A program made the translations under genes and the position numbers. Positions 7,045 through 56,150 of a DNA stretch of 64,000 bases are shown here, one piece after another; positions within the stretch are counted from its first letter, which is position 1; the number at the start of each line of letters is the position of its first letter. Under the pieces are notes generated by a model. It did no database searches and was not told the DNA's origin. It worked only from the letters and a program-made list of their open reading frames with translations. The DNA is from Cetorhinus maximus (lineage: Eukaryota): positions 22,630,001 to 22,694,000 of the forward strand of contig NC_135893.1 of assembly GCF_964194155.1 (NCBI RefSeq), read 5' to 3'.

Positions 7045-7389
7045 GTAAAGATGTCTGTTTCTTCTGCAATAGCTTTCTCACTTGGAAATTGCAATTTTTA
7101 AAAAAGGCTTTTCTAGTTTCCCTGTTTAAAGAAAATCACCGGTAGACTGCAATGGCTTGCTTGGAATGCAGTCATCTGTGTAGTGCGCCCTACCAGCAAG
7201 AGAGTTGGAGGGTTTCTAATGTAATGTAAAGTCAACAGGGTTCAATGTCAGGAAATATATTTATTTCTCAGCGCTTTTCCGCTCTCCTTAAAGACATTAA
7301 CTGCTTTTTGATTTCACCAGTTGTTCTCCAATTCCTTGTCCAAGTTTCCTTTCTTTAATCAAGATCATTGAGGCCACTTGTAAATCCCA

Positions 7390-12680: not shown

Positions 12681-12682
12681 GA

Positions 12683-27710: not shown

Positions 27711-28242
27711 TAGGCTTTATGAAATTGTACATTTTGATGGCATGGTGCTTGTGGGAAAATAAATTGATGCACCTATGGTTCTTGGGAGCAGTGTGAGTCA
27801 AGGGATTGAAGCATTTGTTTGGTTTTGGGAAGGGTCTGTATACTTGTGTGGCTTGCAGGATGGCAGGTTACACTGAGTGAATCACCAAGAAAAGGCCAGA
27901 ATAGATTTTTCCATTTCCAGGCAACATCAATTGTTCTGATGAGCATCTGCTTCACATTTGCTTTAGCCACATGTTTTTGTGGGAAGGGCTGCATTTCACT
28001 GTGGGAAATGTCTCTTTTTTTGGGTTATTCCTCCACCTTCAGCCATTTTGATGCCCTTCTGGCCACAGGCTCTCCAGCAGTCATCTGTAGTGGAAGGATG
28101 GACAACATAGAACTTGTGTGGGGTCTTGTATTTGTGACCTATGATTGAGTTGTCAGATATTTTTTCACAGGACAGTTTAGAAGTGAGTAGAATAACTTTT
28201 TTTTACTTTAAGTCTAACCAAATCTGTTTCTTTTTGTCCAAG

Positions 28243-28392
28243 GTGTCTGTTCGACCCCTTCAGCACACTCAGTACGAACGCTTCATCCCCTCTGCCTACC
28301 CATACTACGCCAGTACCTTCTCCATGATGGTCGGACTCTTCTTGTTCTCGGTGGTCTTCTTGCACATGAAAGAGAAAGAGAAGGCAGAGTGA
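28243..28392 (+). CDS. ddost: DDOST exon 11 (TM helix, stop)
   Basis: [49 protein letters not shown]. Confidence 0.96.
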
Positions 28393-30506: not shown

Positions 30507-30644
30507 ATGTTGCTCACCGTTTACTGCGTGCGGCGCGACTTGAGCGAGATCACCTTCACCCTGCAGGTGAATGGCGGCATGCAGCTGGAGACTTTCCGGG
30601 CGCTGTGTGAAATGGAGAGCAGTATCCCCGCGGCAGAGAGCCAG
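30507..30644 (+). CDS. ddi2: DDI2 exon 1 (UBL)
   Basis: [46 protein letters not shown]; donor CAG|GTGAGA. Confidence 0.96.
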
Positions 30645-31329
30645 GTGAGAGCAGGAGGGACATGTACAGGCTTAAATATACTGCCACACCCGGGTATATA
30701 CCAGAATACACACACTAGCACACAACATTATATACAATCAGCCCCGTTCGTGGTTCTATATATATATGCAACTCTACGTAATTATATGCAACCACACCCA
30801 TATATAGTGTGATATGAACCCCCGCAGCTGAATCTGTCAACTGGGGTATTCGCACTAGAACCATTTCTGTATACATCTGGTGGCAAGTATATGAATACTG
30901 AAGTGTAAACTCTGATTCTGGACACATAAACCCCAGGCTATATATGCCTAAATAAGTCAATACACAGATCGGATCCTATATAACATTGGAGTGTGTTCTC
31001 TATTTCTTCTTCTCCCCCGCCCCCCGGAATGAACTATATACTTATACTCAATTCTAGATATCTAGATTGTTTAAGCTTTGCTTGTACACCTGGACTGAAT
31101 TCTATGCTCAGTCATTTCTGTATATCCCCCAAATGTGCTTTATTCATAAAATATTTAAAGCTTATTCCAAAACATTTCAAATTGGACATTATGGAAAGTA
31201 TTCTGCATAGAGCATATTGTACTCTGAGGTGCCTCAATACAATTGTGATACGTGTGATATTTTTCATATTCAATGACAAGTGTACAGCCCAAGGAGTTCT
31301 ACAATGTTACAAGCCTCTTGGTGCACTAT

Positions 31330-31880
31330 GGCTGAAGGGCCTTAGAAGGTGGCCTTTTCCCACCAGCCGCGTCTTTGCGGCGGCTGCCCCAAGCTTTAGT
31401 GCATCCCTCAGGATGTTGTCCTGGACCTTGGAATGTGCCAGCCTGCAGCACTTGGTTGTGGACAACTCTTTGCACTGGAAGACCAAAGAGTATGTTTCAC
31501 CAAGTTGACGATCCTTCAGCAGCAACTGGTGTTTGTCTCAGTACACATACTCTTGAGTACTAAAAACACAGGGTGGCGGTGGGGTCTTATATATCACGCA
31601 GGGAGTCCCTGAGTTGCTTGTCAACATTGTCAGCATTGGCTAGTAATGGTAGAGGTTCCAATTTTCTTTCCATCACATGGCTAACCAGGAGTTTCTGCTG
31701 CTCCAACTGCCTGCTTTTGTCATGTGTTGGAAGGATTTGCAGGTTGATACTCAACCTCTTTGGCCCCATTATGATCCCACCTTCCTTGGACATTGACTCC
31801 TGGGTGGGGCTCAAACCCAGAGCTTCTGGCTCAGAGGCAGGCTTGCTACCCACTGTGCCACAGAACCCCCTCAAAACAGG
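31330..31880 (-). mobile_element. Tx1/L1-group LINE fragments
   Basis: Minus ORF LVFQCKELSTTKCCRLAHSKVQDNILRDALKLGAAAAK resembles the C-terminus of fish Tx1-like ORF2. Confidence 0.6.
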
Positions 31881-31883
31881 GTA

Positions 31884-32712
31884 CAGTAAGCCCTCAGTTA
31901 AAGTTGTAGTTGCATTCCTGAAAAATACAACTTTAAGCAATTCAAAATTTCCTATTAAAACCAATATAAAAACTAGAGTTGGGTTCTGTAGGACCTTTGT
32001 CATCAGGGAAAAAACATTATACCCTGTAAGCTGAAATACATTACAGTGCTAAATAAAATAAGTTTTAAAATAAAATAAATGTAAAAATTGAAATATGCTA
32101 ACTTTCTACTTATATCCCCCACTCACTGCCTTTCCTGCTCACTGCCATTACTCCTTGCCAAACCTCCTGCTCGCCACACATCTGACTCCCTGACTCTCCC
32201 CGTCGCTGCAGACCCTTCCACTTGCTGACCCTCCATTTCACGGCCTCTGCCACTCCCTGACCACTGCAGTTGCTGCCAACACTTCGGTTTGTGACTTCAG
32301 CTGCTCCTTGACCCTCCCATTTGGTGCAGACCTCTCCTCGCTGAAACAGCCAGCCCCCACCTCTCCCGCTCGCTGCTTCCCCCTCCTGAACCCTCACTAT
32401 GAGCAAGGGCTCTGGAGATGAATGGCGAGAGGCAAGAAGAGTAGCGACTTGCAGGAGGTAAGCCGTGAGCTGGAGAGGCAGTGAGAGGGAGGGTCAGAGA
32501 GCAGCAGAGACCGCAAACTGAAGGGTCAGCAGCGAGAGGAAGGATTGGGAGCAGCAGAGGCAGTTCCAAAATGGTGGAGAATGAGTCGCATGGCCCTACA
32601 TTGGACCCAGTGCAAAACGACTTTAAAATAAAACTTGCAATGCTAAATGAGAATACGGGCCCCATAAACTGACCGAGTTTAAAGTGAAACGACTTAAAAG
32701 GGGGACTAATGG
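31884..32712. mobile_element. Tc1/mariner (Tigger-like) non-autonomous element
   Basis: TA-flanked imperfect TIRs CAGTAAGCCCTCAGTTAAAGTTG / CGACTTAAAAGGGGGACTAATG. Confidence 0.45.
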
Positions 32713-33659
32713 TATATAAAACACTATACGTAGTTAGATGTGCACCTGCCTACATCCATACATATATGAAAATATACCCACCAACCCACATATACATAGC
32801 TGGAACTAACTGTATACAACCATATCCTCAGCTATGCCTGTAATGGTTGTACATATTTTTAGTAATGGATATAACACACACACACACACATGCCCAGATA
32901 TATGCAACAGGAACCATACACAGCCTCAGATATAACTGCACCTGTCTATGTACACATCCACAGACTCATCTGCCACATTTTAAAAAAAGAAACTGAAAGA
33001 AAGCCGTCTGACTCCTAACTGACCTGAGGTTTTGCTGAGTAATCAGCATATGATTGATTTAAAGAATGCTTAGCAATTACTTTGTGGTGGTAAAATGATC
33101 TACACTTCCATTTTAGAAATAATATACTCTTCGTATAGTCCAATACACCTAAAAGAACGCAAACATCTTGCAACTTGCTGTGAACTATAGGAAATCCAGG
33201 AATAAAGTAACACCTTATAGGTGTAAAACCATCGTAACAATTGTGCTCATATGGAGTTTGAAACTCAACACGTTTCGACTTGCAAAGTTCTTTCATCAAA
33301 CAAAAATCAAAGGCAATGAATCTGAGATATTGTCAACTTAAGAATTAGATTTTATGACTTTAAAGAGATTTTTTCACCATGTCATCCAAATAACACCATT
33401 GTGCAATGGATAGTATAACGTACCTGACCAAATGAAACAATGTATCATCCAACCTACTATAAGCAATTTAATAAATTTCTGCTAATAATCAAATACACAT
33501 TAGGAAAACTCCTGTGTTGCTGCTCATTTTCATTTGGAGGATACTTTTTACAATGATAGAGATGTTATGCCATTTAATGTGCTATGTATTTTTAGGGTCA
33601 CTGATTTTCAGCGACTGAATAAGTCAAATCTTGCTTGTCAAATCATCGAAGTGTGACAG

Positions 33660-33765
33660 GAATAAAAACAGAAAATGCTGGAAAAACTCAAGGTCTGACA
33701 GCATCTGTAGAGAGAGAAACAGAGTTAATGTTTCGTGTCTGTATGACCCTTCTTCAGAGCGGGAC
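33660..33765 (-). mobile_element. Penelope terminal-repeat solo copy with hammerhead-like core and 11-bp TSD
   Basis: Minus strand CUGAAGA-AGGGUCAUACAGACAC-GAAACAUUAACU; AAGTGTGACAG at 33649-33659 and 33766-33776. Confidence 0.8.
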
Positions 33766-34411
33766 AAGTGTGACAGAAACTGGGTTGATATAGATAAGAA
33801 AGCGTGTTGACATATGCAAGACTTCTAATATATGAGAGCTATTTGCATTTCATTGATTGCAATGTCAGATTCATAAATCAGCAACAAGTAACAACTGAAT
33901 GTGTAGGCCCCATACCAATTAGCAAGCAGGAATGAAAATTTGCAATCGTATATTTAAAAAACACACAGATCAAAAATGGGCAGCTAGTACTTTAGGAGTT
34001 ATGGCACATTATCTTAGTATGAGTTATGTATTGTAATTTCATTCCCATACCTTTTCCTTATTTATTTTTATGATTTATTCCAATTCATACCCGCTTCCCT
34101 TGAAACAAAACTATTAAAAAGCGAGAAGCTGAAGCAAATTACTCAAGGTGTATTTGATTCCCCTGGCTGAAAGTTTAAAGTTAAAATTAAGGGGCTGTGA
34201 AACAAGTGCTTTTAGACTGGTTTCTGGTGAAATTTAATAAGTAGATCTGTTTATTTGGACAGTTGTTGGTTTCAAGTTCTTCGTAATAAATACAAATTAA
34301 AACACATGAGAGAACAGGCATCCCATCTACTTGTCAGGCATGCAAAATGCTGTAAACAACCGTTGAATGCAGTTTTTTCGCAAGCAAGCAACTTCGGAAA
34401 ATGTTGACACG

Positions 34412-34530
34412 AGCAAAATCCTGCAGATGCTGGAAATCTGAAATAAAAACAAAAAATGCTGGAAATACTCAGCCCGTCAGGCAGCATCTGTGGAGAGAAA
34501 CAGAGTTAACATTTCAGATCGATGACCTTT
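34412..34530 (-). mobile_element. Penelope terminal-repeat-derived short element
   Basis: CTGCAGATGCTGGAAATCTGAAATAAAAACA...GGCAGCATCTGTGGAGAGAAACAGAGTTAAC. Confidence 0.7.
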
Positions 34531-34814
34531 TAGTTGTTACTTTCAGAAAATGTTTGATGTTTACGCTTTACCTTGAAATTAAATGAATGGAGTAGTGAAT
34601 AAATTCAGCTTGCATTAGTAAACAAACAAGTCTTTGTATATACTGTAGTTACTTACATAATTAATCTCAAGGAGAGGTCCAAAACATTGATGTTGTTTTC
34701 AGATCTTTATACCGAAAAAGCAGTTATCATTTAGGGTTCTTGTGAATTTAAGAGGGGGCTGGGTCCAAATAGCAAGTGGTGGAATGCTTTGTGAATATTA
34801 CTGAGATTCATGCC

Positions 34815-35308
34815 GGTCAGAGAAGGCTCACTCAACTAATTCCTGGGATGAAGGAGGCTATCTTACGAGGAAAGGTTGAGCAGGTTGGACCTATACCCAT
34901 TGGAATTTGGAAGATGATCTTATTGAAACATATAAGATCCTGAGGGGACTTGACAGGGTGGATGCTGAGAAAATGTTTCCCCTTGTGGGGGAGTCTAGAA
35001 CTAGGGGACACCGTTTAAAAATTAGGGGCCTCCCATTTGAGATGGAGAGGAGGAGAAATCTTTTTTCTCAGAGGGCTTGTTTGTCTGTGGAACTCTCTTT
35101 CCCAAAGAGCTGTAGAGGCTGGATCATTGAATATATTCAAGGTTAAGTTGGATAGATTTTTGATTGACAAGGAAGTCGAGGATTACAGAGGGCAGGCAGC
35201 AAAGTGGAGTTGAGGCCACAATCAGATCAACCATGATCTTATCGAATGGTGGAGCAGGCTCGAGGGGCTGAACAGCCTACTCCTGTTCCTCATTCTTGTG
35301 TTCTTGTT
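34815..35308 (+). mobile_element. CR1 3' end
   Basis: DLIETYKILRGLDRVDAEKMFPLVGESRTRGH and the CR1 3'UTR hairpin/tail. Confidence 0.85.
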
Positions 35309-35986
35309 CATAAAGGAAGGATGCCAACATGCTTTTTAAAGAGAGGCTTATTGTGATTGACACAGACAGTAGTTACTCAGAAAGGATTGAGACATTTACC
35401 AATAAATTAATAAAGCCCAACCCAACATTTGAAGATCTCACCAAGCTCTACACAAATTGAATTCAGGCTCAGAACACAGACCAAGAGAACATAATTCTTA
35501 TTTGTTGCCGGTCCAGTGCTATAAATCTTTGGAGAACAGCTTATTGGAGAAGTCTATCCCTGTGTTTAACCAGGAACCATTCAAAAAACGTGTTTCACAG
35601 CCCCTTACAGACTTTGTTCTCAGGATGTTAATGACTCTCAAGGTTGTATTGATTGCCGATCTTTGGTTGCCCTGAGAATGGTGTGGTGGGCAAACTTCCT
35701 CAGTGATCGTTTGTATAACTGATTGGCTTTCGCGGTCACCTGAGCAGGTATTAAAACTCGAGCATGTAATGTGGAATTAGAGTCACACACACAGCACTTT
35801 GGTGGATGTGGCAGGTTCCATTCCCTGAAGGAACACTAAGATGAGTTTATGTTTCCTATATTACGGCTAACAAATAATTTCCACCGTTGTGGTAGTTGAG
35901 ACTATGACCGGCATGTCCGGGTGAGGTGCCTGCCAATGGCATAATCACTGTATGTTAGTTAAACCTGAGTGCTGTTTCTGTGTTAG

Positions 35987-36125
35987 ATAATCTTTGCAGA
36001 GAGGCCATTGACTGATGATCGGCAGACACTGACAGCGTATGGACTGAAAGATGGTGATGTACTGGTATTGCGACAGTTGGATAGACCACCGGTGCAGCCT
36101 AGTCTACCACTCCCAGGTGTATCAG
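35987..36125 (+). CDS. ddi2: DDI2 exon 2 (alternative in-frame donor at 36116)
   Basis: IIFAERPLTDDRQTLTAYGLKDGDVLVLRQLDRPPVQPSLPLP(GVS); donor CAG|GTGAGA. Confidence 0.9.
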
Positions 36126-36914
36126 GTGAGAGATCCTGTAGGAACGGCTTGCCAATAATTTTCATGATTTGATTACCCCTATCACCTACAGGCCTTGTAC
36201 ACACTCTTGTAAAAATCCATTTTTGAATCCACCCCAACACTGTCATGACAAAAAGGGAATTACACAGGTGATTATCCCTTTAAGATGGGTTTTGTACAGG
36301 AGACTGCAAGCTGTGAGGATATTAGTAATTTCTTTTCTGCAGTCTACCTGAAAGATTGGTGAGTTAGCATTAAAGACAATGTTGTTAACCTCAGTAATCC
36401 TGGATTAGGGAGGAGAAAATCAGCCAAGTTTCCTGCTCCTGATTGTTATCATGTTGAAAACTATCTGGGCGAGCATTTGGATTCGGCTCAGATGATACAT
36501 TCTATGGTGCAATAGCTTGTGAGCATCACTGTCTGGACTCGTGCATAAATAACAGCCATTTGGATGGAGTACGAGTGTTCAGCACTCATGGAGCTGTACT
36601 CTGCAGGGAGGCAATGCCCTCAGGAGAGGACAGATTGTGTGCAAGAAACTCTAAAAATACTATTTAGGATAAAAATGTTGGGGCATTTTCTTAATTCTTC
36701 AAATGAGACAATGCTCAATGCAATAACTGAGCTTGACTGTTCTTTGTCCATTCAAGAGTTATTAGAGTTAAGATAGTGTGCAATTTAATTATATCTTGGT
36801 TGGAAATATATTTGCATTATTTTGTCCAGGTCATATGGAGAGCCCAGTGGGCAGAGCCATGCTATTACGTTGCCTATGTGGAAATATCACCATAAAGATG
36901 GCTTCATTGCCTTA

Positions 36915-37500
36915 GAATCTTACAGCACAGGAGGCCATTTGCCCCATCATGTTTCTGTTGGCTCTTTGAAAGCGCTGTCCAATTAGTCTCACTCCTCTGT
37001 TTTTCCTCATAGCTCTACAAATTTTCCTTTTCAAGTATACAGAGAATTCCCCATCAAGTTATTATTGAATCTCTTTCCACCACATCTTCAGGTACTACAT
37101 TCCAGATCACAACATCAAGCTGTGTCAAATACATTCTCCTTGTCTCCCCTTGGCTTTTTTGCCAACTGTTTTAAACTCATGTCCTCTGGTTTCCAACTCT
37201 CCCCTTATTGGAAACAGTTTCTCCCTATCTACCCAAACTCCTCTATTAAACCTCCCCTTAACCTTCTCTGCTTCAAGGAGAACAATTTCTAGCTTCTCTA
37301 ATCTCTCCACGTAACTGCAGTTCCTCATCCCTGGTAAATTCTAGTAAATCCTCTGCACTCTGTCCAAGACCTTGACATCCGTCTTAAGGTATGGTGCCAA
37401 GATTTGGACACAATATTCCAACTGAGGCCTAATTGGTGATTTATAAAATTTTAGCATAACTCCCTTGCTTTTATACCCTATTTATAAAGCCAGAGATCCT
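36915..37500 (-). mobile_element. CR1 3' fragment
   Basis: Minus ORF SYVERLEKL...VDREKLFP...TRGHEFK. Confidence 0.7.
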
Positions 37501-37780
37501 ATATGGTACGATGCATAAAGGCGATTCTAGCTGAAGAATGGGGATCCTGCCAAGGGGAATTTAACCTACCATCATTGTTCATGCCTGTGGTACAGTCTCT
37601 GTTCTATGCCATGTCTTGGCTTGGCTTGTTTACAAACATGTTTTTAACATTAATTCCGGTGATATGAATGGCTCATAAGTTTTCACTGCCTTTCAGCACT
37701 GTGGTATGGACACTGGCATTGGTGTGGGGTTTACCTATTGTCAATGTATTTTGATATTTCTCCCTCTTACCTTCTTTTAG

Positions 37781-38044
37781 GACTTCCCAGGATTGATTTC
37801 AGTGGTATCTCAGTGCCTGGGTCAGTGGGGCCTGGAACTCCTGCATCTGGAGTAGCTAATCAGCAACCACCAAAGCCAACTCCCAGTAGCTCTACTGCTT
37901 CCCCTCCCCCTGTTCCAGCTCCGCACAGCTTGGAAAATAATCCTACCTTACTGCGGGACATGCTGTTGGCCAACCCACACGAGCTCTCACTGTTGAAGGA
38001 GCGAAATCCTCCATTAGCTGAGGCACTTCTTAGCGGAGATCTTG
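37781..38044 (+). CDS. ddi2: DDI2 exon 3 (HDD start)
   Basis: LPRIDFSGISVPG...NPTLLRDMLLANPHELSLLKERNPPLAEALLSGDL. Confidence 0.95.
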
Positions 38045-39298
38045 GTAAATATGGAAATTCTATCGTCTTGTTTCTGCTGGTCTCCTTCCATGTTTGTGCT
38101 GCTATTTGACAATTGAATTGACTCCTGTGAGGGTTAAAATACTGCCCACAGAATTTGTTGTAGGACACCTGTACAGGATTCTTCTGATAAGAGTTACTCA
38201 TGGTGTAACTATGGGCTTTTGCTTATTAAGCAGTGTTGATAATTAATTAAAATGTTGGGAAATTTAATTCAATAATTTTGTTAAATATAATGAGCTAACA
38301 AATGTACCTAGTTAGAAAAAGGTTTTCATGCACAGTTTTGGGATTGTAATATGCCTTAGTTTCAGACAGCTTCTGTATTACAGTTGTGGCTCCTCAGAAT
38401 TGTAGTCCTGTGGCTGCTTAAGGACACATTTAGTACACTTTGCCTGGTTACAGAAGGTTTGCAGGATGTTTAAAAGCTCAGCAGCATGTGCAGTGCTGCT
38501 TGTGGAAGTGTGAGTAAGGGTGAGGTGGTGGGTTGTCAAAGACAAGGTGAGGGATGAGATTGTGATCTTTTATGTATTGTATGATAAATTACATTTTTGA
38601 GGGTATATAGTGAAGAAGTGCAGTAGGTGAGGAACGAGCTTCACCATTTTGAATGCAATGGGAAATTGGAAAGGGAGGTTTGGATATGATTGGTTATTTT
38701 CTGCTTTCATTATTGTCCAATTAAAAATAAGACTTAGACCCTTAACCTATGAGGAAGAAAATTGACAGTTTTAGCAGGTGCCAGCCTGAGCTCAGTGGTA
38801 GCTCCTTGGTCACTATTTATCTCTAAAGCAACAAACTAAAACAAATGATCTGGTCCTTTATCTCATTGCTGTTTGTAGGACTTTGCTGTGCACTAATTGC
38901 CTAATTCACAATTGTTCTTTCTTTAATGGTCATGACAAACTCGAGAAGTTTCATTGTTGCTCACAAATAACCACTTGGATGAATAGCCACAGGACAGCCA
39001 GTGCCTGTGGAACTGTACCCTGGCGAAGAGTCAGTGGTTTTAGACATGAAGGGGAGGACATTTGCACAAGAACCCCGAGAAATTCTTAGGCAACTTTGAA
39101 CAATATAGCCATAATGAATAATAACATTAACAGAATGCTCTTCTAACAGCTCATTAAACAGAGGCAGAGTTATTAATTAATACTGAGCTAAGTGATCAGT
39201 ATGGCTGTGCTCATTACTGCTCACTCATGGCTGTTGTGTACTATGTACTGTCTCAATGGTTAAGTAATTCTTTCCGCTTTGTGCTATTTCTCCATAAG

Positions 39299-39425
39299 AT
39301 AAGTTTACAAGAGTGTTGCGAGAGCAGCAGTTGGAACGAGCACGGCGAGAACAGGAGCGGATCCGACTTCTAAATGCTGACCCCTTTGACCTGGAGGCAC
39401 AGGCCAAAATTGAGGAAGACATCAG
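39299..39425 (+). CDS. ddi2: DDI2 exon 4
   Basis: [43 protein letters not shown]. Confidence 0.95.
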
Positions 39426-40454
39426 GTATAGAGCCATTGCTGTTTGAGGCCTTGAGTTTTCCTACTTAACACTTGTTGCACTCCAAAGTAATTCATTGTG
39501 TGAAACAATTGAAGATATTTTGGTGGTGTTAAGTGCTCTGTAATCACAGGGGCTTATTTTTCTTTGTTCTTCCTATTTTTCTTACACTTAGAGCATCTAA
39601 GGTTGTCTGTATTGAGTGGTTTCTGTCTGAACACAAGAACACAAAATTTGGTGCCCTACATTGGGGAGGGGGAAATTCGAGCAGTACTCCTAAGTGCCCC
39701 CTGCTGGAATGTGAACAGTGTTGATTGAGGACAAATTTAGGCTCAACTGTGATGCAGTCTACAGTTGAATAGCTTGCCAACAGAGTCTTATTTTACATAA
39801 GAATGATGGATACTTGAACATGGTACCAGGGTGTGTTTAGAGCCCATGGAATCATACACTCGCAAGAAATCTGGGTGCTTTCAAATGAGATGGGGAGCAA
39901 ATTAGAAAGAAAAACATTTTTGATATATTCTTGTGCTTGCAGAATTATTGGGGAAATGTTATGCTGGTCCTAGGACGCTAGCAATTTTTTATTACTAGGT
40001 CACTAATTCCTTGTGCAAGTTTTGCTGCAGCACTTGAGAAATGATGGAGAGTTTTGTCCATGCACTGCTCGATTTTCCCAACCCCTCCGTATTCAGTCCT
40101 CCACTGGGAAGCACCCTGCATAGATGTCAGTTTACCTGGGCAATTGGAATTCTTGGATGGGTCAACCACTGTTCTCCTATTCATTCCATCTGTTTCATAG
40201 CACATATTCTGGTGTTACTGTATCTTATCAGTAGTACTCCCCACATCCCTCTACTGTTAGGAATTACATGTAGACACAAAAAAAGAGTGAAAGGGCAGGA
40301 TTGACGGTGCAGTGCTAATTTTAGCCATATACCTCAGGTAACCTCTGCTAGTGAATTTTGCTTGCTGAGTGCCAAGATCAGGCTTGTAGTTGTGGTGCTG
40401 GCATCTCTTCTACCTTATTCTGTTGTCCTGTTAACAGACATTTTTGTTTTCCAG

Positions 40455-40582
40455 GCAGCAGAACATTGAGGAGAACATGACAATTGCAATGGAAGAATCA
40501 CCGGAGAGCTTTGGTCAGGTGGTAATGCTCTACATCAATTGCAAGGTTAATGGGATGCCAGTCAAAGCATTTGTGGATTCAG
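40455..40582 (+). CDS. ddi2: DDI2 exon 5 (protease domain, catalytic Asp)
   Basis: [42 protein letters not shown](G). Confidence 0.96.
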
Positions 40583-41179
40583 GTGGGTTCATATGTGCTT
40601 GTATGATTAAATTATACATAGATTCTGAGTTAGTTTGAAACAATAATTGTAAAATCCTTGGTAGCATTAAAGCAGGCCAGGTTGGGAAGCAGGTTGGGTA
40701 AATGTGCAGGGAAAGTATATAGTTGAATGGTATCAGATGTACAAGATCCCTGTGTCTGACATAACAGTACATGGCAGCTACAGATGTATTACACCCACCA
40801 AGTTTATTACAGCACTATTATTCCATGTGTAGATGCTGTATTTGTTGTACACATACAATAGCCACTTGCAGCTATCCTCTATACAGGACATTAAATGCAC
40901 AATTGCTGCTTTGTACACCCATTCTCCATATACACATTAGTACACAATCATTAATGCCTATTACTTAATCTCATGGCTGCTCCTTCCATGTGTCCTGTAG
41001 ATAATTTTACCATTAGCACTCAAGACAAAAAACTTACATGCTGGAGTAAATATTTAAAATGGAATGATCAAATTACCTTTAGGCACATCAGTAAATGGGA
41101 CTGATACTATGGGGTTATGATCTAACAGTGAAATTGTGCACCCAATTTTGTCAATAAGTCTATACTGTCATTGATACAG

Positions 41180-41308
41180 GAGCACAGATGACAATCATGA
41201 GCCAGGCATGTGCTGAGAGGTGCAACATCATGCGCTTGGTTGATAGGCGGTGGGCGGGAATCGCCAAAGGTGTTGGAACACAGAAAATCATTGGCAGAGT
41301 TCACTTGG
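41180..41308 (+). CDS. ddi2: DDI2 exon 6
   Basis: [43 protein letters not shown]. Confidence 0.96.
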
Positions 41309-41714
41309 GTGAGTAATTTTAACATGATATGTATCTGATTTTTGAGAATTGCCAACATTACTATTTTATGAAGTAAAGTATCTGTAGTGCTTTGAATTTT
41401 AAATGGTTGGAGGAGATCACAAGGCTTTGTCCACATATATAAATAACCATTCCTATAGAACTAACAGTGATGGATATGATGTGGTGGGGTTTCCAGTTTT
41501 TTCCCCATCTGTCTTAAAGATGCGTTTTGGAGAGGATAGTATCTCACTATTTCTGATCTGCAGGGAGCTGATGTAACATTTGAGTAGTGCAGTGTCCTGG
41601 TCCCCATTCCTGGCATCAGAAAATGGAAGGAAAGAACATATTCCTACTTGAAACGATACAGAGAAACATATCCAAAAATAGTGCACTGGTCCAAGACAAA
41701 AATATTAACAGAAT

Positions 41715-42025
41715 ATAAGCAAAACGGACAGGAGTAGGCCATTTGGCCTTTTGAGTCTGTTTCACCATTCAATACGAGCATGGCTGAACTCTACCTCGGG
41801 TCACTTTCCCACACTACACTGATATCCCATAATTCTCTTAGTGTCCAAAAATCTATCAATCTACATCTTGAATTTACTCAACAATTGGAGAGCAAATTCC
41901 AAAGATCTATGAAACTTTGGATGAAGAAATCTCTCTTCATCTTGGTCCTAAATGGCCAATCCCTTACCATGAGACAGTGAGCTCTGTTTCTAGACTTCCC
42001 AGCCAGGGAAAACATCCTTCCCGCA
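41715..42025 (-). mobile_element. CR1 3' end fragment
   Basis: CAGGAGTAGGCCATTTGGCC is the reverse complement of the CR1 tail. Confidence 0.65.
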
Positions 42026-42379
42026 TTATTCACGACTTGATGTGTGCCATTTAGAAGCTACTCTTTGTTCTAATACGGATTCGAAATGTTAACTCTGTTT
42101 CTCTCTCCACATATGCTGCCAGACCTGTTGAGTTTTCCTAGCATTGTCTACTCTTGGTTCTGGTTTTTAGAGCTGGAGTGCCTCCCATTAGTTTCAGAGC
42201 AGTGTTATCAAGAGCTTCAGAAAGGAAGGGACTCTAATGTCAGTAGTTACAAAAAGGGAGCCACAGGAGAAATCAAATAGTTGTGCACAAAAACAGGGAA
42301 AAGGCAAGGGATGTTCAGTAGTCATTTGTTGTTGGCATTCAATTTAGCTGGCTTTAGTCGATATTTTGTCTTTTTACAG

Positions 42380-42483
42380 CCCAGGTTCAGATTGAAGGTG
42401 ACTTCCTCCCCTGCTCTTTCTCTCTCCTGGAAGACCAGCCAATGGATATGTTGCTTGGACTCGACATGCTCAAAAGGCACCAG
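42380..42483 (+). CDS. ddi2: DDI2 exon 7
   Basis: [35 protein letters not shown]. Confidence 0.96.
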
Positions 42484-42594
42484 GTAAGAAGTGAGCACCA
42501 ATTCTAGGCAATGGAGCCAAAGTCATTAGGATGAGGGTAGCATGATTCAAAATTTGGAGCTGAAATTGGATGAACTGTCAACGTTGATTCTGAT

Positions 42595-44300
42595 CATACG
42601 CCATGTCCCAGACACCTCCATCTGGCAGGTCAGCCCCAGCAGAGGTGGCAGCACAGTGGTATACAGTCAGGAGGGAGTTGCCCTGGCAATAACCTGCTCA
42701 CTGACGCCCAGTTTGGGTTCTGCCAGGGCCACTCAGCTCCTGACCTCATTACAGCCTTGGTTCAAACATGGACAAAAGAGCTGAACTCCCAAGGTGAGGT
42801 GAGTTGACTGCCTTTGACATCAAGGCCTCATTTGACCGAGTGTGACATCAAGGGAGCCCTAGCAGAACTGGAGTCAATGGGAATCGGGGGGGTGAAAACT
42901 CTCCACTGGTTGGAGTCATACCTAGCAGAAAAGAAGATGGTTGTGGTTGTTGGTCAATCATCTCAGTTCCAGGACATTAGGAATGCAGGAATTCCTCGGG
43001 GTAGTATCCTAGGCCTAACCATCTTTCAGCTGCTTCATCAATGACCTTCCTTCCATCGTAAAGTCGGAAATGGGGATGTTCGCTGATGATTGCACAAAGC
43101 TCAGCACCATTCGCGACTCCTCAGACACTGAAGCAGTCCCATGTCCAAATGCAGCAAGACCTGGACAATATCCCGGCTTGGGCTGACAAGTGGCAAGTAG
43201 CATTCGCTTCACACAAGTGCCAGGCAATGACCATCTCCAACAAGAGAGAATCTAACCATCGAACACATTCAATGGCATTACCATCGCTGAATCCCCCACT
43301 ATGATCATTCACCAAGGCTCCTTAGACTGCACCTTCCAAAACCACGACCACTACTATCTAGAAAAACAAGGGAAGCAGATAGGTAGAAATACCACCACCT
43401 GGAAGTTTGCCCCTAAGCCACTTACCATCCTGACTTGGCAATATATCACTGTTCCTTCACTGTTGCTGGGTCAAAATCCTGGAACTCCCTAACAGCACTG
43501 CGGGTGTGCCTACACCACATGGACTGCAGCAGTTCAAGAGGGCAGCTCACAACCGCCTTCTCAAGAGCAACTAGGCATGGGCAATAAATGTTGGCCCAGC
43601 CGGTGAAGCTCACATCCTGTGAATTAATAAAAAAAAATTTTTAAATCCTGGGGGTTACCATTGACCAGAAACTGAACTGGACTAGCCATATAAATACTGT
43701 GGCGACAAGAGCAGGTCAGAGGCTAGGAATCCTGCGGCGAGTAACTCACCTCCTGACTCCCCAAAGCCTGTCCATCATCAACCAGGCACAAATCAGGAGT
43801 GTGATGGAATACCCTCCATTTGTCTGGATGAGTGCAGCTCCAACAACACTCAAGAAGCTTGACACCATCAAGGACAAAGCAGCCTGCTGGATTGGCACCC
43901 CATCCACAAACATTCACTCCCTCCACCATTGACAAACAGTGGCAGCAGTGTGTACCATCTACAAGGTGCACTGCAGAAACACACCAAGGCTCCTTCGGCA
44001 GCACCTTCCAAACCCACGACTGCTACCATCTAGAAGGACAAGTACAGCAGATAAATGGGAACCCACTACCTGGAAGTTCCCCTCCAAGCCACTCACCATC
44101 CTGACTTGCAAATATATTGCTATTCTTTCACAGTTGCTGGGTCAAAATCCTGCAACTCCCTCCCTAACAGCACTGTGGATATACCAACACCACAGGGACT
44201 GCAGAGGTTCAAGAAGGCAGCTCACCACCACCTTCTCGAGGGCAATTAGGGATGGGCAATAAATGCTGGCCTAGCCAGCCATGCCCACATCTTATAAATT
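42595..44300 (+). mobile_element. Internally deleted CR1/L2-group LINE copy with a nested 3' fragment of the same family (about 43285-43640)
   Basis: Colinear with 21900-22010 and then 23358-24630; two 3' tails (about 43570-43635 and 44240-44300). Confidence 0.85.
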
Positions 44301-44311
44301 AATTTAGAAAA

Positions 44312-44407
44312 ACTAGGCCATTCATACTCGGCCATTTGTTCTGATCGTATGCCATTCACTAGGCCATTCATACTAGGCCATTAATTCTGATAATACTAGG
44401 CCATTCA
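44312..44407. repeat. Short minisatellite of (ACTA)GGCCATT(CA) units
   Basis: Six GCCATT cores in about 95 bp directly after a LINE tail. Confidence 0.7.
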
Positions 44408-45432
44408 CCCATTAGTACAACTGCAACTTACACTTTAACATCATAAAACGCCCCAAGGTTCTTCATTGAACAAATTTTATTTAGAATTTACTGGCTCCAG
44501 ATATAACTGGCAACAACAATTTCCTGCTTTGTGCTTCCCAGCGAAAACTGAACAGGCAGTTAAAATTGCCATTGGACTTGCCCACTCTCCTTCCCCCAAG
44601 CCCTGATTTTAACTTGCTGTTCTGAGCAGATGGAAAGAACACAACTGGAAACTGGTAGGGCTCCGATAACATCATTGGCACCTGTTATTTTAGCCAGAGA
44701 CCTGTGCAATTGAGCCATTGTGGATTTCTCACTCAACCAACCTAATGGGAAGAAGACATCGGGGCCAGTTTGATTACTCCTCTGGGTCCCACAAGGAAAA
44801 TTTAGGCCTGTCCTGCCCCAAGCCTCCCCACCCCAACCCCGATCCTGAGACCCTCCAGAATCCCTTACCTGTCTTTTGGTCCTAGATGTTGGCCTGCTGC
44901 TGCTTCAAATGGTGCCCCCACCCACCGAACATCTGCCACTTCCAGCCAGCTTTGGACAGGAGCCTGAATTGGCCCTGTGCAGATGAGGCCGGACCTCTCT
45001 GCTGAGGTTAACCTGGCTTCCCACCTGCCTCAGCACACCCCTGCATTACTGCTGCCACAAGTTAAAATCAGGGCTTTAGTGTCCAAGTTATAATATGAAG
45101 ACATGGCATTTTGGTGAAGTACTGGGGGTGCCCCACACTTTCTAAATTCGCAGCCCAGCAAGAGTCCAGGCCTTTTAGGAAAGGAGAGAAATTGGGTAGA
45201 GAAAACCCCGCAAACTGTTATCTCAACCAATGTAGACACGAAGAAGAGATAGTGATCTGGAGCGAACCCTACTTGATGATTAAAAGCTCTGCATATGAAG
45301 ATAACTTTTTGTCTCATATAATGAAGAATTAAACTAATTCCAAAGATTTAGTTGTTTATTTTTTTGGTTCACTGATTATTTTAATTTCTAGTGTTATAAA
45401 TGCAGGTGCTCGTTATTCCTGTCTCCTTGCAG

Positions 45433-45622
45433 TGTTCAATTGACCTGAAACGCAATGTGTTAGTTATCGGCACCACAGGAACAGAGACCCGCTTTTTATC
45501 TGAAGCAGAGCTACCGGAGTGTGCCAGGTTGGCATATGGTGTTCCACGAGATGATCTTCATCCTGAGGAGCTGGCAGATGCAGAACTGGCCGAGGCACTA
45601 CACAGATCGGCAGAGGAATCTG
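45433..45622 (+). CDS. ddi2: DDI2 exon 8 (end of protease, UIM)
   Basis: [36 protein letters not shown]...[16 protein letters not shown]; phase-1 donor G|GTAAAT. Confidence 0.96.
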
Positions 45623-46653
45623 GTAAATTTGCGACAAATCTTTTCCTATTACAGAATTGTGGTAATGTAGATTTAGTTGTGGAATGCAGTAATTTAAAAT
45701 TTGGTAACCAAGTGAACTACAGGATTATTTAAGGCAGAATGTCCCCCAACCCAGCTACCCAAATTCATGAGCAGTTAGTCTGTAGTAAAGGTTTCATTGA
45801 TAGATCCTGGGTGATGTCCTGGCTTCATGATTGTTCAGTATCAGGAAGGTAAGTAGAAATTTTTTCTTTTCTGTCTTTTCCAAAGCTTACTCAAAATTTT
45901 TGTGCCGTTGTTCCTTTGGCTTCATCAAGGTGGACCTTTGCTTGGGTGTAATCCCATCGGCACTGGCAGTCTCCGCTATCTCTCAAAGTGGCAAACTTTA
46001 GTTTGAGATTAAATAGTGAACATTCACAGGTCTTTGACCACAAAGGGGATCAAAGGTGAATCCAATCCTACTCCCACCCATGCATGACAAGGCTGGAGCT
46101 ACTGTATAGTGATCAAGAGCGGGAATCCTGTCTAATTTCCTCTCAGGGGCTAATTTAAGTGACCCTACTATAGCTACAGATGAAACTAATTTAGTCAGCA
46201 TGCACTGGAGATTGGATTTAGCACCTTCTGCTCTGTGTGGCTCAGTGCTACGTCAGTCAGAGCCCTTAGCCATTCATAATTAAAACCACATAGATTCACA
46301 CTATCTCCTGGGTGATGTGTGGGTCTATTCTCTTCCCTATGCCATTTTGTTATGTTTCAGTGTGTCTATAACATCATGCATCTATTTATAATTAACAAGA
46401 CATTGATATCTTCACACCAGTGCTTTTCATTTGGTCAGTCTAACCTCCATGTCAGCTCCAGAAGCTGGGGGTGTTAGTGGAGCGAATACTGTCTAATAAT
46501 ATCGCTCATACTTATGCTGTGATATATTTGTGTGGAATGTTAATCTGTTTGATATCCATGGTGATTCGTAATAGTATATGCATGTTGCATGCGTCCATTG
46601 CCTAATCAAGTTTGCTGTTTGGTTTGTTTTGGGTGTTTTTTTTATTCTAACAG

Positions 46654-46670
46654 GACGCCGGCATCACTGA
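46654..46670 (+). CDS. ddi2: DDI2 exon 9 coding part (GRRHH*); the exon extends to a donor at 46713
   Basis: Strong acceptor TTTTTTTTATTCTAACAG; G|GA CGC CGG CAT CAC TGA parallels the 5-residue human tail ERQKP; donor CAG|GTATTT. Confidence 0.85.
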
Positions 46671-47351
46671 TGCATGTTGCACTTTGCTGCCCCTGAAGAT
46701 GATCAGAGCCCAGGTATTTAATGTTCTTTTACTTTTAAATGACTTATTGTGGCACAACAGCCAAACGTACACACAGGAAATACTTGCATCAAACTACATG
46801 GTTGGCTTCACTGCATTGCCCTGAGGACCTGGATGGCCCTCATGACCAGCTGTGGCATAAGTGAACCACGCCACTAACTCGGCACGTGTACAATTCTTGG
46901 CTTCCTATCTGTTCACTATAATTTTTCCGATTGAACAGTTGGATCCCAGTGAATGCTTCAGTTTTTTAGCCTTTTTAACTCAACTGAGGCATTCCCTATT
47001 CACAAGCTAACTGGGTATTTCATTAGGCTACCCACTCACTCTGCAGTCTTAATAGAGTCGTATGGTATAGAAGGAGGTCATTTACCCCATTGTACATAAT
47101 TGCTTCTCTTTGAAAGAGCAATCCAATTAGTTCCACTCCCCTGCACTATTCCCATTGTCCTGCAGTTTTTTTTTCCTTTTCAAGTATCTATCTAATTCCT
47201 TTTTGGAAGTTACTATTGAATCTCCCTTTGAGGGGGTACATTCTTGATGGTAAAGTAAATTCCCCCTCTGGTTCTTTCGCCAGTTGTCTCAAATCTGTGT
47301 CCTCTGGCCATCAACCTTCCTGCTTGTGTAAACAGTTTCTTCTTTTATTTA

Positions 47352-47739
47352 TTTTTTATTCTTTCATGGGATGTGGGCGACACTGGCAAGGCCAGCACTT
47401 GTTGCCCATCCCTAATTGCCCCTGAACTGAGTGGCCTGCAGTGCCACTTGGAGTGCAGTTAAGAGTTACTGTGGGTTTGGAGTCACATGTAGACCAAACC
47501 AGATAAGGATGGCAGATTTCCTTCCCTAAAGGACATAAGTGAACCAGATGGGTTTTTACGACAATCGACAATGGTTTCACGGTCGCCATTACCGAAACTA
47601 ACTTTTAATTCCAGATTTATTAATTGAATTTAAATTCCACCAGCTGCCGTGGTGATATTTGAATCCTTTGTTCCTAGAACATTAGCCTGGGCCTCTGGTT
47701 ACTAGTCCGTAACATTACCACCACGCCACCATCTCCCCC
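47352..47739 (-). mobile_element. Full-length tRNA-derived SINE inserted in a CR1 fragment (about 47050-47830)
   Basis: Head GGTGGCGTGGTGG...GGATTCAAAT, body TTTAGGGAAGGAAATCTGCC, tail GGGGCAATTAGGGATGGGC...CCCATGAAAGAATAAAAAA. Confidence 0.85.
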
Positions 47740-48240
47740 TATTTATTCCATCAAAGCCCTTCATAATTTTGAACACCCTTATTAAATCTTCCCCTTACTT
47801 CATCTGCTCTAAGGAGAGCAACCCCTGCTCACCAGTTCCTGTATAAAGTTAGCAGAGATGCATTAAGTTAACGCACTGTGAAAACTTCTGATTTAATGCC
47901 TGGTTTGTGACTCTGTTGCTAGTCAAGAAATTACATAACTTGCTTGCCACATTTTAGGACACTTTACATTGTTTGCAGCATTACAAAGGAGTGATTGCTG
48001 TGTAACACCCTGCTAACAAGTTGTTTACATCCTCCAATAAGGTGCATCCTGCAATAAGTAATACATAATTTAATGATACATACTTAAACTCACTTTTAAG
48101 TTTCAATGCAGCTTACACTCGCCACATAACTGTTAGTCTTCAGGGAATGATGGCCTAGAGTAAGTTAGAGCAGTGTTGCTCACTAACTACAAGTATCTGA
48201 TTGAACTAAGCACCATGCATTTGAATTTTCCTATTACAAT

Positions 48241-48966
48241 GGGCAGGATTTTTCCTGCGGGCTTCTGAACTCTGCCGTTAGTCTCAAATTTGGGTCAGAA
48301 GCCCACACTCCGGGGGAAATGGTCACTAGTTGTGGTTTTCCCTAGAGCAGTCAGTTAAGGGCCAGAGGTTGGGCTCACTATCCAATTAAGGACAAAATGG
48401 GTAGGCTCTCTAAGCTGGAGGGCCAATAAGAGACCTTCCTGCTTGGAAGTAGCAGAAGATTGTGATGACAGGTACTTGAGGGAGAGGGAACATCAAAATG
48501 GAGGATCCTGTCTCCAACATTTTAAAATTTAAACCAAGAAATGGCTTTTGCAACCAGGCCACCACTGTAGGGGGGCAGCCCTCTAAAGGGCAGCCAGTGG
48601 CTGCTGCTGCAACCAGGCAGGCATGGAATGTCTCTCAGCCTGCCTGGAGCACTGGCCCTCTTGTCTACCACCAAGGGGCCATCTCCAGACAGCTAAACTG
48701 GCCCATGCAGCCTTCGGGAACCTGGAGGCTGACTGGAAAACCCCAGTTGACTTCCTTTAAGTGGCCGTTACCAAGTTGGATCAGCCACCCGCTGCTTACG
48801 GCCCTGTGGCCTCCTCTCCCCCCCACCCCAACCTCTGCCATTTCACCTCCATGAAAATGGCCCAGGTGCCAAACAGCTAGGGAAACCAGCATGCTAGCCA
48901 GCAGTTCTGTTTCTAACACCCACCTGCCTGCGATCGCAGCCCTAGTGGGCACTAAAAACCAAGCCC
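48241..48966. mobile_element. MITE-like element (GGGC termini, Harbinger-like)
   Basis: Imperfect TIRs GGGCAGGATTTTT / AAAAACCAAGCCC; similar ends to 60941-61620. Confidence 0.5.
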
Positions 48967-49250
48967 ATAGTCTTCCTCAGTTCAGTGAGGTCATCTTTTT
49001 TTCAGTTCTGAGCTCTCCAGTTACTATAACTGAACTTCTATTGTTCAATGAAATGCCTGTACCAAGGTTGAGCCATCTATAAAAGTGGTCATTAACATTG
49101 TCCACTTGATGCTGGTTTGGAAATGAATAGAAACGATAGAACGACAGGATAGTGCATTGCAACTGCTGTGTAATTTTGCTATAAGATGCTCTGGAATAAG
49201 ATGTATATATACCTGTAATCTAGGACTCAATTTCCTATTTTTTGTTTTAG

Positions 49251-51289
49251 GAAAAGAAAATGGCAAAACTACCTCATTGGAAAGCCCTTCATTACCAGCA
49301 CCTCATCATCTTCATCTCCCAGGTCCCATTACAAGAAGTGACCTATCTCAAGCCCCTAAAACCCAAAGTCAGTGGGACCGTTCACTTTCCGTCCCTGCTA
49401 GCCTTCCTTCACAAAACCAGAACAAGTTTGAACTTACAGGTGTAAAAAGCCTTCAGATCACTCCTGAGTGCATGGAAACACAGGCAGAAAAACAGGCACT
49501 GTCAGGATCATTGGACAATATATTGACTTCTCTGTCTCCTGATAATCTGTCTGCTCCTTCTCAGGCATCACTAGGGAAAAAGCACATACCACAGTGTGAA
49601 AGCATTAATTGCAGCTCACAAAACCTCTTGAAATATCCAACTTCAGATACAGATGATGAGTCTGTGCCAAAACATGTCTTGCCAGACATGAGTCCACATG
49701 AGGTTGGCATGGAAAAGGGTGGCATCACACAGGAAAACCATTCTCTTCTAAATTTTAGAACAAAATCCCAGCTGGAAAGCATAAACAAAGGAGATTTGGA
49801 GGAACCACCAATAAGAAAAGTTGGAGAGATTTCTTCAGCTGTACAACCAAATTGTGATCCTGTGCCTGATCTGGGTGTAGCTGACAGGTCAATCCAACCA
49901 CCCTCACCTGAACTGGCTTTTGCTGACAGTTCTTCTAACATGGATGAAATGCAACAGTCCACTGAAAGTGGAAAGGAGTTTAATGATCCAGACAGCCACA
50001 TACAGCAAGTCACTGAGCCATCAGACATGGACCTTGAAATAGCTGAAAAAGATCTATGTAGCTGTCAAAAGAGATTTGAGACTGATGGAAAACCACCATT
50101 TGATTCTTTAACTGGGAACATTGAATTCTGTGGTGCTGAAATTGTAAACTCTACTGAACAACAGGAAGAGGAAATTAGACATTCAGCATCAAAAAAGACA
50201 GAAAACAGTTGCCAAAAGGTGGGGAAAGTCCATATTTCAGATCAGGAATTTGAGGATGGACATGTAAGTTCAAACTCCTCTATTGCTCAGGTGGATATAC
50301 CCATTGAGTTTACTAGTGACTACGTGAGAGAAAAATCTGAAGTTGCTCTTGATGCTAATAAAAAGCATGAAGAGGTACATTTGTTTACCGAGATTAAACA
50401 GTCTACCTATCAGCAGGATCAGACATCAGATTCTGATTCACACTTCTCCCCCGTAGCTACTTTATTTAAATTGCATCGAGAGTTAGTCACCTCATGTCAG
50501 GATGCTTCCTTGAAGACATCAGCCAGTTCAGAGGACAACTATCAGTCATATGCAACAAATCAGGAAGAATGTGTTCAACCAATGGAAGTGTCTGAAGAAT
50601 GTTCAGATAATGATGCCCTGAACAGGATGTGTGTTAGCACAGAAATGGAATCTCTTGTTGTGGAAATGGAAAAAGAACCTTTGCTCACAGCTAATTCCGA
50701 AGCTTCTTCCAAAAGAGACAACAGTGTGGAATGCTCCAATGTATTTCCAGAAAAACTTACCTCAGACGTGCCACGAGTTGAATCTGAGGAGATTTTTATA
50801 CATGACGCAAAGGACAAGGCTACAGCTTTTATTATTGTGTCCAAGGATCTATCAAAGGAAATGGAAGTTTCGCCCCCTGAGGAATCATTGCAAACCCAAG
50901 AATTATCAGTAAAGAGTATGGTACATACACCTGACACTGCAGCAGGTGAAAACAGCCAGATGTCACAAAGTAGTGAGACACATTTGCAAGTGATGACAGA
51001 TAATGTAGTGTGTCCTTCAGAGGTCCCAGACGTTTCAGCTGCTCCAATGATATGGGAAGGGACTATGGAAGCAAACGTGAATCAGCCTGATGGACATTCT
51101 TTGGATAGCCCTCTAGGACTGCATTCTCCAGCTTTATCAACCCAGATTTTCCCAGCTGCAAATGTTGAACGAATAAGAAGATCAGGATTTACTCAGCAAG
51201 AAGCAGTCGAGGCCCTTGAACGTTTTCATGGCAATACAGATCTGGCTCTCCTGGTTCTCCTTGCAAGAAAAATTGTGGTTCCTATCTGA
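49251..51289 (+). CDS. rsc1a1: RSC1A1-like terminal exon of the ddi2 locus: long acidic Ser/Glu-rich region plus C-terminal UBA
   Basis: 2-kb uninterrupted ORF after acceptor TTTTTTGTTTTAG. C-terminus IFPAANVERIRRSGFTQQEAVEALERFHGNTDLALLVLLARKIVVPI matches the RSC1A1 UBA. Phase-1 start fits both the exon 8 and exon 9 donors. Confidence 0.9.
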
Positions 51290-52125
51290 AGCTGTCCAAC
51301 AAGAGTCTGTAGGACAGTAATAAGCTGGCACTGTTTCGACATTTGGGCCTACAAATGGGTATCTGTTGGTCGAAAGGAAGCGAGTTTCAGTCAGAATCAT
51401 TATTTTTGGATGTTGTTGGGAAAAACCTGTTTTATCTGTTGATATCATCTGTCACTGGCAAACTGGTTATTGTGGTCAAGTTTCAGCAACATTAGTATTT
51501 GATTTCAGTGCCATTCTGGAGTTACTACTTCACTCCGCAATATTCACTGGTAGCCCATAAGCCTACCAACCCAGCTCTATTTAAATATCAACCCTAATGC
51601 TGTTTAAACTGCCTATGATTTTTAAGTGAATATTCTCAAAGCTGGTTTGGCACAGCAAGGAGGAGGAAGGACAAAAGTAGCAGGTTTGAATCCTTGGAAG
51701 ATGATCTACGTGTACGTGCAGTATTCATGGTGGAATCATGTTAGATTTAAAATTTGCGCAAGGTCAGTAGTTGTCTACATTGGATTTGGGGGTTGCTTTA
51801 GGGTTTGGCTTAACCAGAGGGAGAAGTGGAAAGTCTCTATCATGTTTCCTCCATAAAGTTCATGTATCTCACCTTCTGAGAACACAAATTTTTAGAATTA
51901 TTTTACTCTTTTATAGCCTTTGTCAAATCTGACACAGCAACACCACCTCTGCTGGACATTTGTCACATTTGAGGCATATTCAGTATTCACAGTTGGTAAA
52001 AATTGTTTTATGAAGGTGTTTGTGCATTTTTTTTCTTAATTGACAGTAGTGATGTTGCTGTAATCTTCAATGGCTGCTTAGTGCAACCTCTGGTCTTTGT
52101 TTTTTCTCTTTTTTTAAACCAAATA

Positions 52126-52131
52126 ATTAAA
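52126..52131 (+). terminator. Possible polyadenylation signal for ddi2/rsc1a1-like transcript
   Basis: ATTAAA after a T-rich tract, with GT-rich TTGGTTTTGTGT downstream. Confidence 0.4.
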
Positions 52132-52382
52132 AAAAGTTATTGCCAAACAAAATATTGGTTTTGTGTCACCTGATGCGAGCATTTAAAAAGCTATCTGTAT
52201 GAAGAAGGCTAGAAATCTGAAGTGTTCTGACTTCTTGTCTGTAAAAGCTGATTTCAGCCAAAGATGCAATGATGAAGTAGTAGGTTAAGGTTCTGGAGGA
52301 TAGCAGATGGGAATAATGCACGATGAAAATCTTGATTCATCATTGAAACCTCTGAAACTATTACCGTCATAATCTGGACTCT

Positions 52383-53286
52383 CAGGGCTGAATCTTAATT
52401 CTCAAAAACTGGTGGGTTGGGCTCATGTCGCAAATTAAAATGTACAAAATCTGTAACAGGAACTGAACCTGCACACTTCCAGTTTTAACAGAGGTGGGAT
52501 GAGGGGTGGGCAATCAACTCATTCATAGAAAGGGATTTGCTCATTTAACTATTATAACGAGGCAGCGTGCTTACATTTTAACAGGCATTCTATTTTTAAC
52601 CATGGACAGCCAGGTATCATACAAATTAGGAGCAGGAGTAGGCCATTCAGTTCCTCAAGGTTACCCTACCATTCAACAAGATCATGGCTGATCTGATGTG
52701 GGCCCAACTCTGTCCCAGGCAAGAGGCGCTGAATCCATGGCGTAACTGCCTTCACAACACAGCTATGGGTCAAGAGGAGCAGGCGTGCTTCCTCCAGACC
52801 CAACAAGCTAACTCAGTAAACTGCACCCACCCCGCCCTCCATCCTCATGTGATCTGTCTATGCTCCAGAACGTAATCAGACTCGAGCATGATCGGGACCC
52901 TCTCCCACCGACTCACCATCTGACTCTTCCCTCATGACCAGGACCCCTCGGCCACCGTGGAACTCTTCAGTCCCCTGTAACCTGGACTCCTCCAAGTTTC
53001 TGAAAGTAATACTTAGTCCTGTTACAGATCTGGAAATTTTCTCTTTACAGTACTTACATTGCAGAAGCATTAAACAAATATCTCTAGTGAGCTTAAACCA
53101 AAATATTATAACTCCAAATGAAGGCATTCTCCCTGAAAGTCTTTGTACCTTATGAATTGAGCTGCACTATTGTCGAACCAATAAGTAATAAGAAAGTATT
53201 TGTCAAACCTAGCTGCTGTAATAGACTTTGGCCCTCTGAAGCTGGCTTCCTGCCTGAAAGGCTTCCAGCCTGTAAGATTGGGCTGT
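52383..53286. mobile_element. MITE-like element with a small CR1-tail insert (about 52620-52700)
   Basis: Imperfect TIRs CAGGGCTGAATCTTA / TAAGATTGGGGCTG. Confidence 0.4.
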
Positions 53287-55744: not shown

Positions 55745-56150
55745 AATCCACTTGATCAGCATCCCATCCATCACATTAAACATTCATGCTCTCCACAGCT
55801 GATGCATCATGGTTAGAGTGTGCACCAGCTACAGATGCACCACTGAAACTCGCCAAAGCTTCTTCAACAGTACTTCCCAAACCCAACACCTAGAAGGATA
55901 AAACACCATTGCTTCTGCGTTCCCCTCTGAGCCGCACACCATTTTGACTTGGAGATATATTCACCGTTCCTTCATCATTGATGGGTCAAAGTCCTAGAAC
56001 TTCCTACCTAATAGCATTGTAGGAGAACCTTCACCATATGGAATACAGTGATTGATTCAAGAAGGAAGTTCACCACCTCCCTCTCATGGGCAAATAGGGA
56101 TGAACAATAAGTGCCAATGCCCACGTCCTGACAATGAATATAAAAAAAGT
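55745..56150 (+). mobile_element. Degenerate 3' fragment of the CR1/L2-group LINE family
   Basis: Similar to 24205-24630, ending GGGCAAATAGGGATG...ATGAATATAAAAAAA. Confidence 0.65.

Follow-up and report, generated by a model that had tools for sequence, protein, structure and literature searches.

A stop-carrying exon of basking shark DDI2: a likely role in splicing, not in translation restart

The window, a stretch of 64,000 nucleotides from the basking shark Cetorhinus maximus (NC_135893.1, positions 22,630,001 to 22,694,000), contains the gene DDI2 and, in its last exon, an open reading frame resembling RSC1A1. The DDI2 exons were mapped with tblastn, in which protein P0007 matched the window at 87–100% identity per exon, and the Pfam domains of exons 1–8 were read off the shark fusion protein P0003. 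The short exon of interest is number 9 of the 10 exons in this mapping. The features are as follows.

30507..45622, + strand: DDI2 coding exons 1–8 (UBL, HDD, RVP protease and UIM), located by tblastn and Pfam
45433..45622, + strand: exon 8, 190 nt, carrying the UIM and ending in phase 1, covered by RNA-like contigs
46579..46591, + strand: two tandem TGCATG elements (starts 46579 and 46586), predicted to be of RBFOX type, 63–75 nt upstream of the exon 9 acceptor
46654..46713, + strand: exon 9, a stop-cassette exon of 60 nt, with AG before it and GTATTT after it
46668..46670, + strand: TGA closing short DDI2, 43 nt upstream of the last junction
46670..46672, + strand: ATG overlapping the stop, here out of frame and open for 8 codons
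46671..46676, + strand: exonic TGCATG, whose last three bases are the in-frame ATG 46674
49251..51289, + strand: RSC1A1-like ORF of exon 10, with the junction motif TTS, RSxSxP, an ELH helix, a long low-complexity linker and the UBA
51155..51271, + strand: C-terminal three-helix domain, predicted to be of UBA type from a model, fold matches and a profile match
52126..52131, + strand: AATAAA, the likely poly(A) signal; three RNA-like contigs end about 20 nt further on

Upstream of DDI2 and in tandem with it lies DDOST, with OST48 exons for the N-terminal and middle domain at 6921–7142 and 28138–28389 (+ strand), one coding exon being placed about 2 kb before DDI2 exon 1. Reverse transcriptase and GIY-YIG ORFs at 2173–3690 (− strand) resemble a Penelope-like retroelement, and more reverse transcriptase fragments are found at 12674–13642 and 23062–23908.

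Exon 9 measures 60 nt between canonical splice sites, and all coordinates given in the first-pass annotation hold. In the joined frame of exons 8, 9 and 10, the TGA at 46668 is the sole stop before the final one, which bears out the earlier claim that a single codon is the only barrier between the DDI2 frame and the downstream ORF. As also claimed, ATG 46674 spliced to 49251 opens an RSC1A1-like ORF of 692 aa; it is letter-identical to the C. maximus RefSeq protein XP_078414210.1 and thus already annotated, and the Carcharodon RefSeq model starts at the same ATG. The coordinates agree with the 43 nt previously stated for the distance from the stop to the last junction. According to the 50–55 nt rule, a stop this near the last junction escapes nonsense-mediated decay (NMD), and the exon-9-included mRNA would be expected to do so. 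No second copy of the exon 9 region was found in the C. maximus genome.

The splicing of exon 9 is seen in shark relatives only, in sequencing runs that are presumed to be RNA and whose GT..AG joints show splicing. The joint from 45622 to 46654 (GT..AG) is present in runs X8 and X16, where a loose end past 46714 reads on into exon 10. Runs X1, X5 and X6 each provide one contig with exactly 60 letters between exons 8 and 10 (by record coordinates), extending to about 52,100–52,150, near the AATAAA at 52126. The 46713 donor is accordingly used, and exon 9 joins exon 10 across the 46713–49251 junction that the first-pass annotation had proposed to check; DDI2 and the RSC1A1/UBA ORF share one spliced contig, as its view of RSC1A1 as the 3' exon of DDI2 had it. 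Inclusion of exon 9 gives the main mRNA of all six informative shark runs (X1, X5, X6, X7, X8 and X16); X12, with no contig here, and X15, with a single unspliced one, are uninformative. An exon 8–10 skip junction was found in none of the six among the joints listed, in contigs that lose rare forms and come from tissues unrecorded for these runs. X8 also has a contig spanning all of intron 8 (45623–46653) at a depth of 25, compared with 325 for the spliced junction, and this is some intron retention or pre-mRNA.

A route to a joint protein that was absent from the first-pass annotation, and is simpler than translation restart, would be skipping of exon 9. The exon 8 donor is in frame with exon 10, and when the two are joined directly the frame is open to the final stop, through the UBA; the phase of the exon 10 acceptor is identical across jawed vertebrates. 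In a protein search that covered lengths of 595–1,894 aa, with short proteins outside its scope, we found 265 DDI-like proteins of at least 595 aa, most of the long DDI2 proteins being automatic gene models. The best 120 of the 265 are from chimaera, sharks, coelacanth, sturgeons, gar, bowfin, teleosts, amphibians, reptiles, birds, platypus, marsupials and Old World monkeys, and further long forms were found in rays, rat and a frog; no human protein is among the long forms listed. Within the best 120, an xTS motif follows the junction by a few residues in every protein, the ELH helix is present in 118, RSxSxP in 86 (in the window near 49379–49396, + strand, where we take it to resemble a 14-3-3 mode I site) and the UBA-end pattern in 119, the one miss having a variant tail. 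A stricter UBA-end pattern is matched by 53 of 124, because it misses teleost-type tails.

Long forms are also found on Logan contigs. The zebrafish cluster has three long members known from Logan only (P0098, P0196 and P0197; 914 aa, contigs of 2.9–3.6 kb) next to seven short ones among the ten Logan members listed, and the macaque cluster has one (P0163; 1,018 aa, contig of 6.2 kb). These four contigs barely exceed the coding sequence or are transcript-sized. The Logan contigs of these two clusters comprise included as well as skipped forms; the sharks (six runs) show inclusion only. A literature search, with most subscription journals outside its reach, gave no paper on a long DDI2–UBA isoform.

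Based on these observations, we consider it probable that exon 9 is an alternatively spliced stop-cassette exon, and that skipping it gives a conserved long DDI2 with a UBA-type domain. With exon 9 included, DDI2 would end just past the UIM; with exon 9 skipped, the in-frame junction of exon 8 with exon 10 would yield a DDI2 of about 1,080–1,090 residues ending in the UBA-type domain, a form that we presume is also made in C. maximus. The name RSC1A1 would then mainly denote DDI2's final coding exon, and the length divisible by three and the in-frame ATG of exon 9 would be a lamniform accident of a one-base difference. Overall, exon 9 is likely to act as a switch in splicing and not to signal a restart of translation.

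The domain at the end of exon 10 is, by prediction, of UBA type. The model has helices at residues 16–24, 29–38 and 43–54 with a mean pLDDT of 79.6, and most of the top matches in the fold search were UBA or UBA-like, none at E 0.001 or better. A profile of 18 sequences matched the UBA of yeast Ddi1 (2mr9) with an E-value of 3.6e-6, ranked after NUB1, and S. pombe Mud1 (1z96) with an E-value of 0.004. The curated cut-off of Pfam PF00627 was not reached, with 14.3 bits for P0001 compared with the 22.4 required. The domain may bind ubiquitin.

A shorter version of the same arrangement is seen in P0277, where a UIM-like helix and a Ddi1-like UBA are connected by a short linker that contains the TTS motif. 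P0279 has the same tail, and P0280 a similar short linker with a UBA; no longer homologue of P0277 was found, and the Atlas search gave weak leads. As a lead, these three proteins suggest that exon 10 arose by expansion of an ancestral linker and not by insertion of a gene, and that the UIM may be older than the vertebrates.

A candidate for the control of exon 9 is provided by the TGCATG elements. Among 17 plus-strand sites, those at 46579, 46586 and 46671 are the only three that fall within 100 nt of sequence, and none was found upstream of or inside the other DDI2 exons tested; the probability of two more such elements beside the exonic one is about 3.5e-4. UGCAUG is the RBFOX element, and GCAUG binding upstream of an exon is associated with its repression in the accessible text of an Rbfox1 splicing study (PMC11874969), where the authors' own data are only partly consistent with this pattern. 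DDI2 is absent from the searchable supplements of that study and of the other papers searched. The cluster upstream of and within exon 9 has the placement seen in RBFOX-repressed cassettes, and ATG 46674, earlier assigned as the restart codon, is part of one predicted RBFOX motif. In other species, this exonic motif is compatible with the MH-V N-termini and with the shark frames. Judged by motif position, RBFOX proteins may therefore favour skipping of exon 9, in which case the long form would be biased toward neurons and muscle.

Reinitiation is a first alternative, in a wider form in which ribosomes that end DDI2 restart at whichever ATG of TGATGCATG is in frame, so that the main mRNA would also yield a free RSC1A1/UBA protein. 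Many bony vertebrates would use the stop-overlapping ATG and lamniform sharks the second one, and such a process would be compatible with skipping. Predicted proteins with N-termini in exon 9 are found at 46 nt from the junction in the rat cluster, at 43 nt in Hyla, Dendropsophus, P0012 and Varanus, at 40 nt in lamniforms and at 37 nt in Conger and Albula. In the rat cluster, 10 of the 14 Logan members checked start with MMHV, at the stop-overlapping ATG, and the net three-base difference of rat exon 9 keeps the frame. The overlapping ATG is likewise in frame, by protein N-termini, in the two frogs (Hyla and Dendropsophus) and in P0012. The mRNA concerned is the form that predominates in the shark runs.

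The frame relation is not kept in the relatives, however. Exon 9 is 60 nt in Cetorhinus and in organisms A and B, but 61 nt in the shark organism D, which has one extra base at 46682, and the same length follows from the annotated N-termini of P0002 (catshark) and P0009 (stingray), which match the window frames only with one extra base; exon lengths outside the sharks were read from protein N-termini throughout. Both post-stop ATGs are out of frame with exon 10 in these 61-nt lineages. The annotated N-termini are, moreover, subject to ascertainment, because a case out of frame leaves no such N-terminus, and with two ATGs available two of every three exon lengths place one of them in frame. The N-terminal peptide is not conserved. 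A scan of metagenome contigs for the exon 9 pattern returned only chance hits: tblastn with seven long DDI2 proteins matched none of the 15 loci.

Termination-reinitiation of the TURBS type combines overlap or adjacency of stop and start with an upstream UGGGA motif. ATG 46674 does adjoin the stop in the downstream frame, but no UGGGA occurs in the 207 nt upstream of the TGA, the Kozak context of ATG 46674 is poor, and better ATGs lie out of frame at 46699 and 49260. Reinitiation past an ORF of 400 codons is also normally inefficient. We therefore regard restart at exon 9 as unlikely. The stop-restart idea of the first-pass annotation thus fails at ATG 46674, whose equivalent is out of frame in the 61-nt relatives, whereas a variant using the overlapping ATG survives for rat, the two frogs and P0012.

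In the published account, RSC1A1 counts as a gene in its own right that starts within the last exon of DDI2, and the long models would be annotation artefacts or splicing noise. In the accessible part of Siva et al. 2016 (PMC4962041), the study that characterised human DDI2, all vertebrate Ddi1-like proteins are stated to have lost the UBA, which RSC1A1 is said to have taken over on its insertion into the locus; RS1 is treated as a separate regulator of SGLT1 and studied as a protein in mammals in the portion available of PMC7462918. Stand-alone models of about 618 aa exist, and the lack of a skip junction in the six shark runs points the same way. The start Met of mammalian RSC1A1, 11 residues past the junction, is nevertheless not conserved: this column has Met in 37 of the best 120 of 265 long DDI2 proteins and Thr in rat (rat cluster, P0284 and P0221), and in 45 of the same 120 the first Met of exon 10 is over 30 residues into the exon. 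Conserved residues continue upstream of the start Met up to the splice acceptor, and an RSxSxP-like motif precedes the first exon 10 Met in 30 of the 89 proteins having such a motif. Together with the shared acceptor phase and the transcript-length contigs that carry long forms, this makes a separate gene improbable as the explanation.

The narrow version of the restart, in which a conserved exon of 3n length serves initiation at ATG 46674, is very hard to maintain. It holds in Cetorhinus and Carcharodon, where the RefSeq models start at this codon, but the 61-nt exons of organism D, catshark and stingray refute it as a conserved feature, and the expected conservation of length and post-stop frame failed. 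The reservation made at the outset, that a 3n exon open after its stop can occur by chance, proved apt: when the 43 bases after the stop were shuffled 20,000 times, 15% of the trials had an in-frame ATG and no further stop before the junction, and a 3n length is expected by chance in one exon of three. No helper motif was found in the 207 nt before the stop. The arrangement is therefore weak as a signal against coincidence, and the stop-restart as first stated is a lamniform coincidence.

Readthrough of the TGA or its recoding as selenocysteine, for which it can be said that one stop alone parts the two frames here, is scarcely credible as a route to the fusion protein, since programmed readthrough has the context UGA-CUAG but this stop reads TGA-TGC, as already recognised, no Rfam match of any kind, SECIS included, lies within 45,000–56,000, the route is impossible in the 61-nt lineages, and skipping yields a fusion without recoding.

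DDI2 is a ubiquitin-linked protease that acts in NRF1 activation and in resistance to proteasome inhibitors. A conserved long form with a UBA, if true, would alter the ubiquitin chains or substrates that it engages, probably by tissue. Knockouts, probes and antibodies directed at RSC1A1 would then hit the last exon of DDI2, and RS1 phenotypes would need re-reading. The long form itself is already in automatic annotations; what is new is how it is read, in contrast to the published account, together with the candidate switch. The most far-reaching version is that DDI2 never lost its UBA, that all jawed vertebrates have an RBFOX-switched long protease with RSC1A1 as its last exon, and that TGATGCATG doubles as a stop-start site for free RS1/UBA protein from the short-DDI2 mRNA; this combination we hold to be improbable.

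Viral termination-reinitiation, as for calicivirus VP2 and influenza B BM2, resembles exon 9 in having stop and start overlapping or 3 nt apart, but exon 9 has no upstream UGGGA, its frame is not conserved in elasmobranchs, and a restart there is hypothetical. The human DDI2/RSC1A1 (RS1) locus, as described in the part of PMC4962041 available, is the same locus, with a UBL–HDD–RVP–UIM protease upstream and an RSC1A1 polypeptide that ends in the former Ddi1 UBA; there, the UBA was lost and a gene inserted, whereas we propose alternative splice products of one gene. As in the RBFOX-repressed cassette exons that switch a C-terminus, TGCATG occurs upstream of and inside a short exon, but inclusion of exon 9 ends the protein, with escape from NMD predicted, and dependence on RBFOX is a prediction here. 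In analogy to yeast Ddi1 and S. pombe Mud1 (UBL–RVP–UBA), long DDI2 would have the same domain order, with the difference that its UBA is carried on an exon 10 segment of 255–805 residues, mostly linker, which we propose is made optional by splicing.
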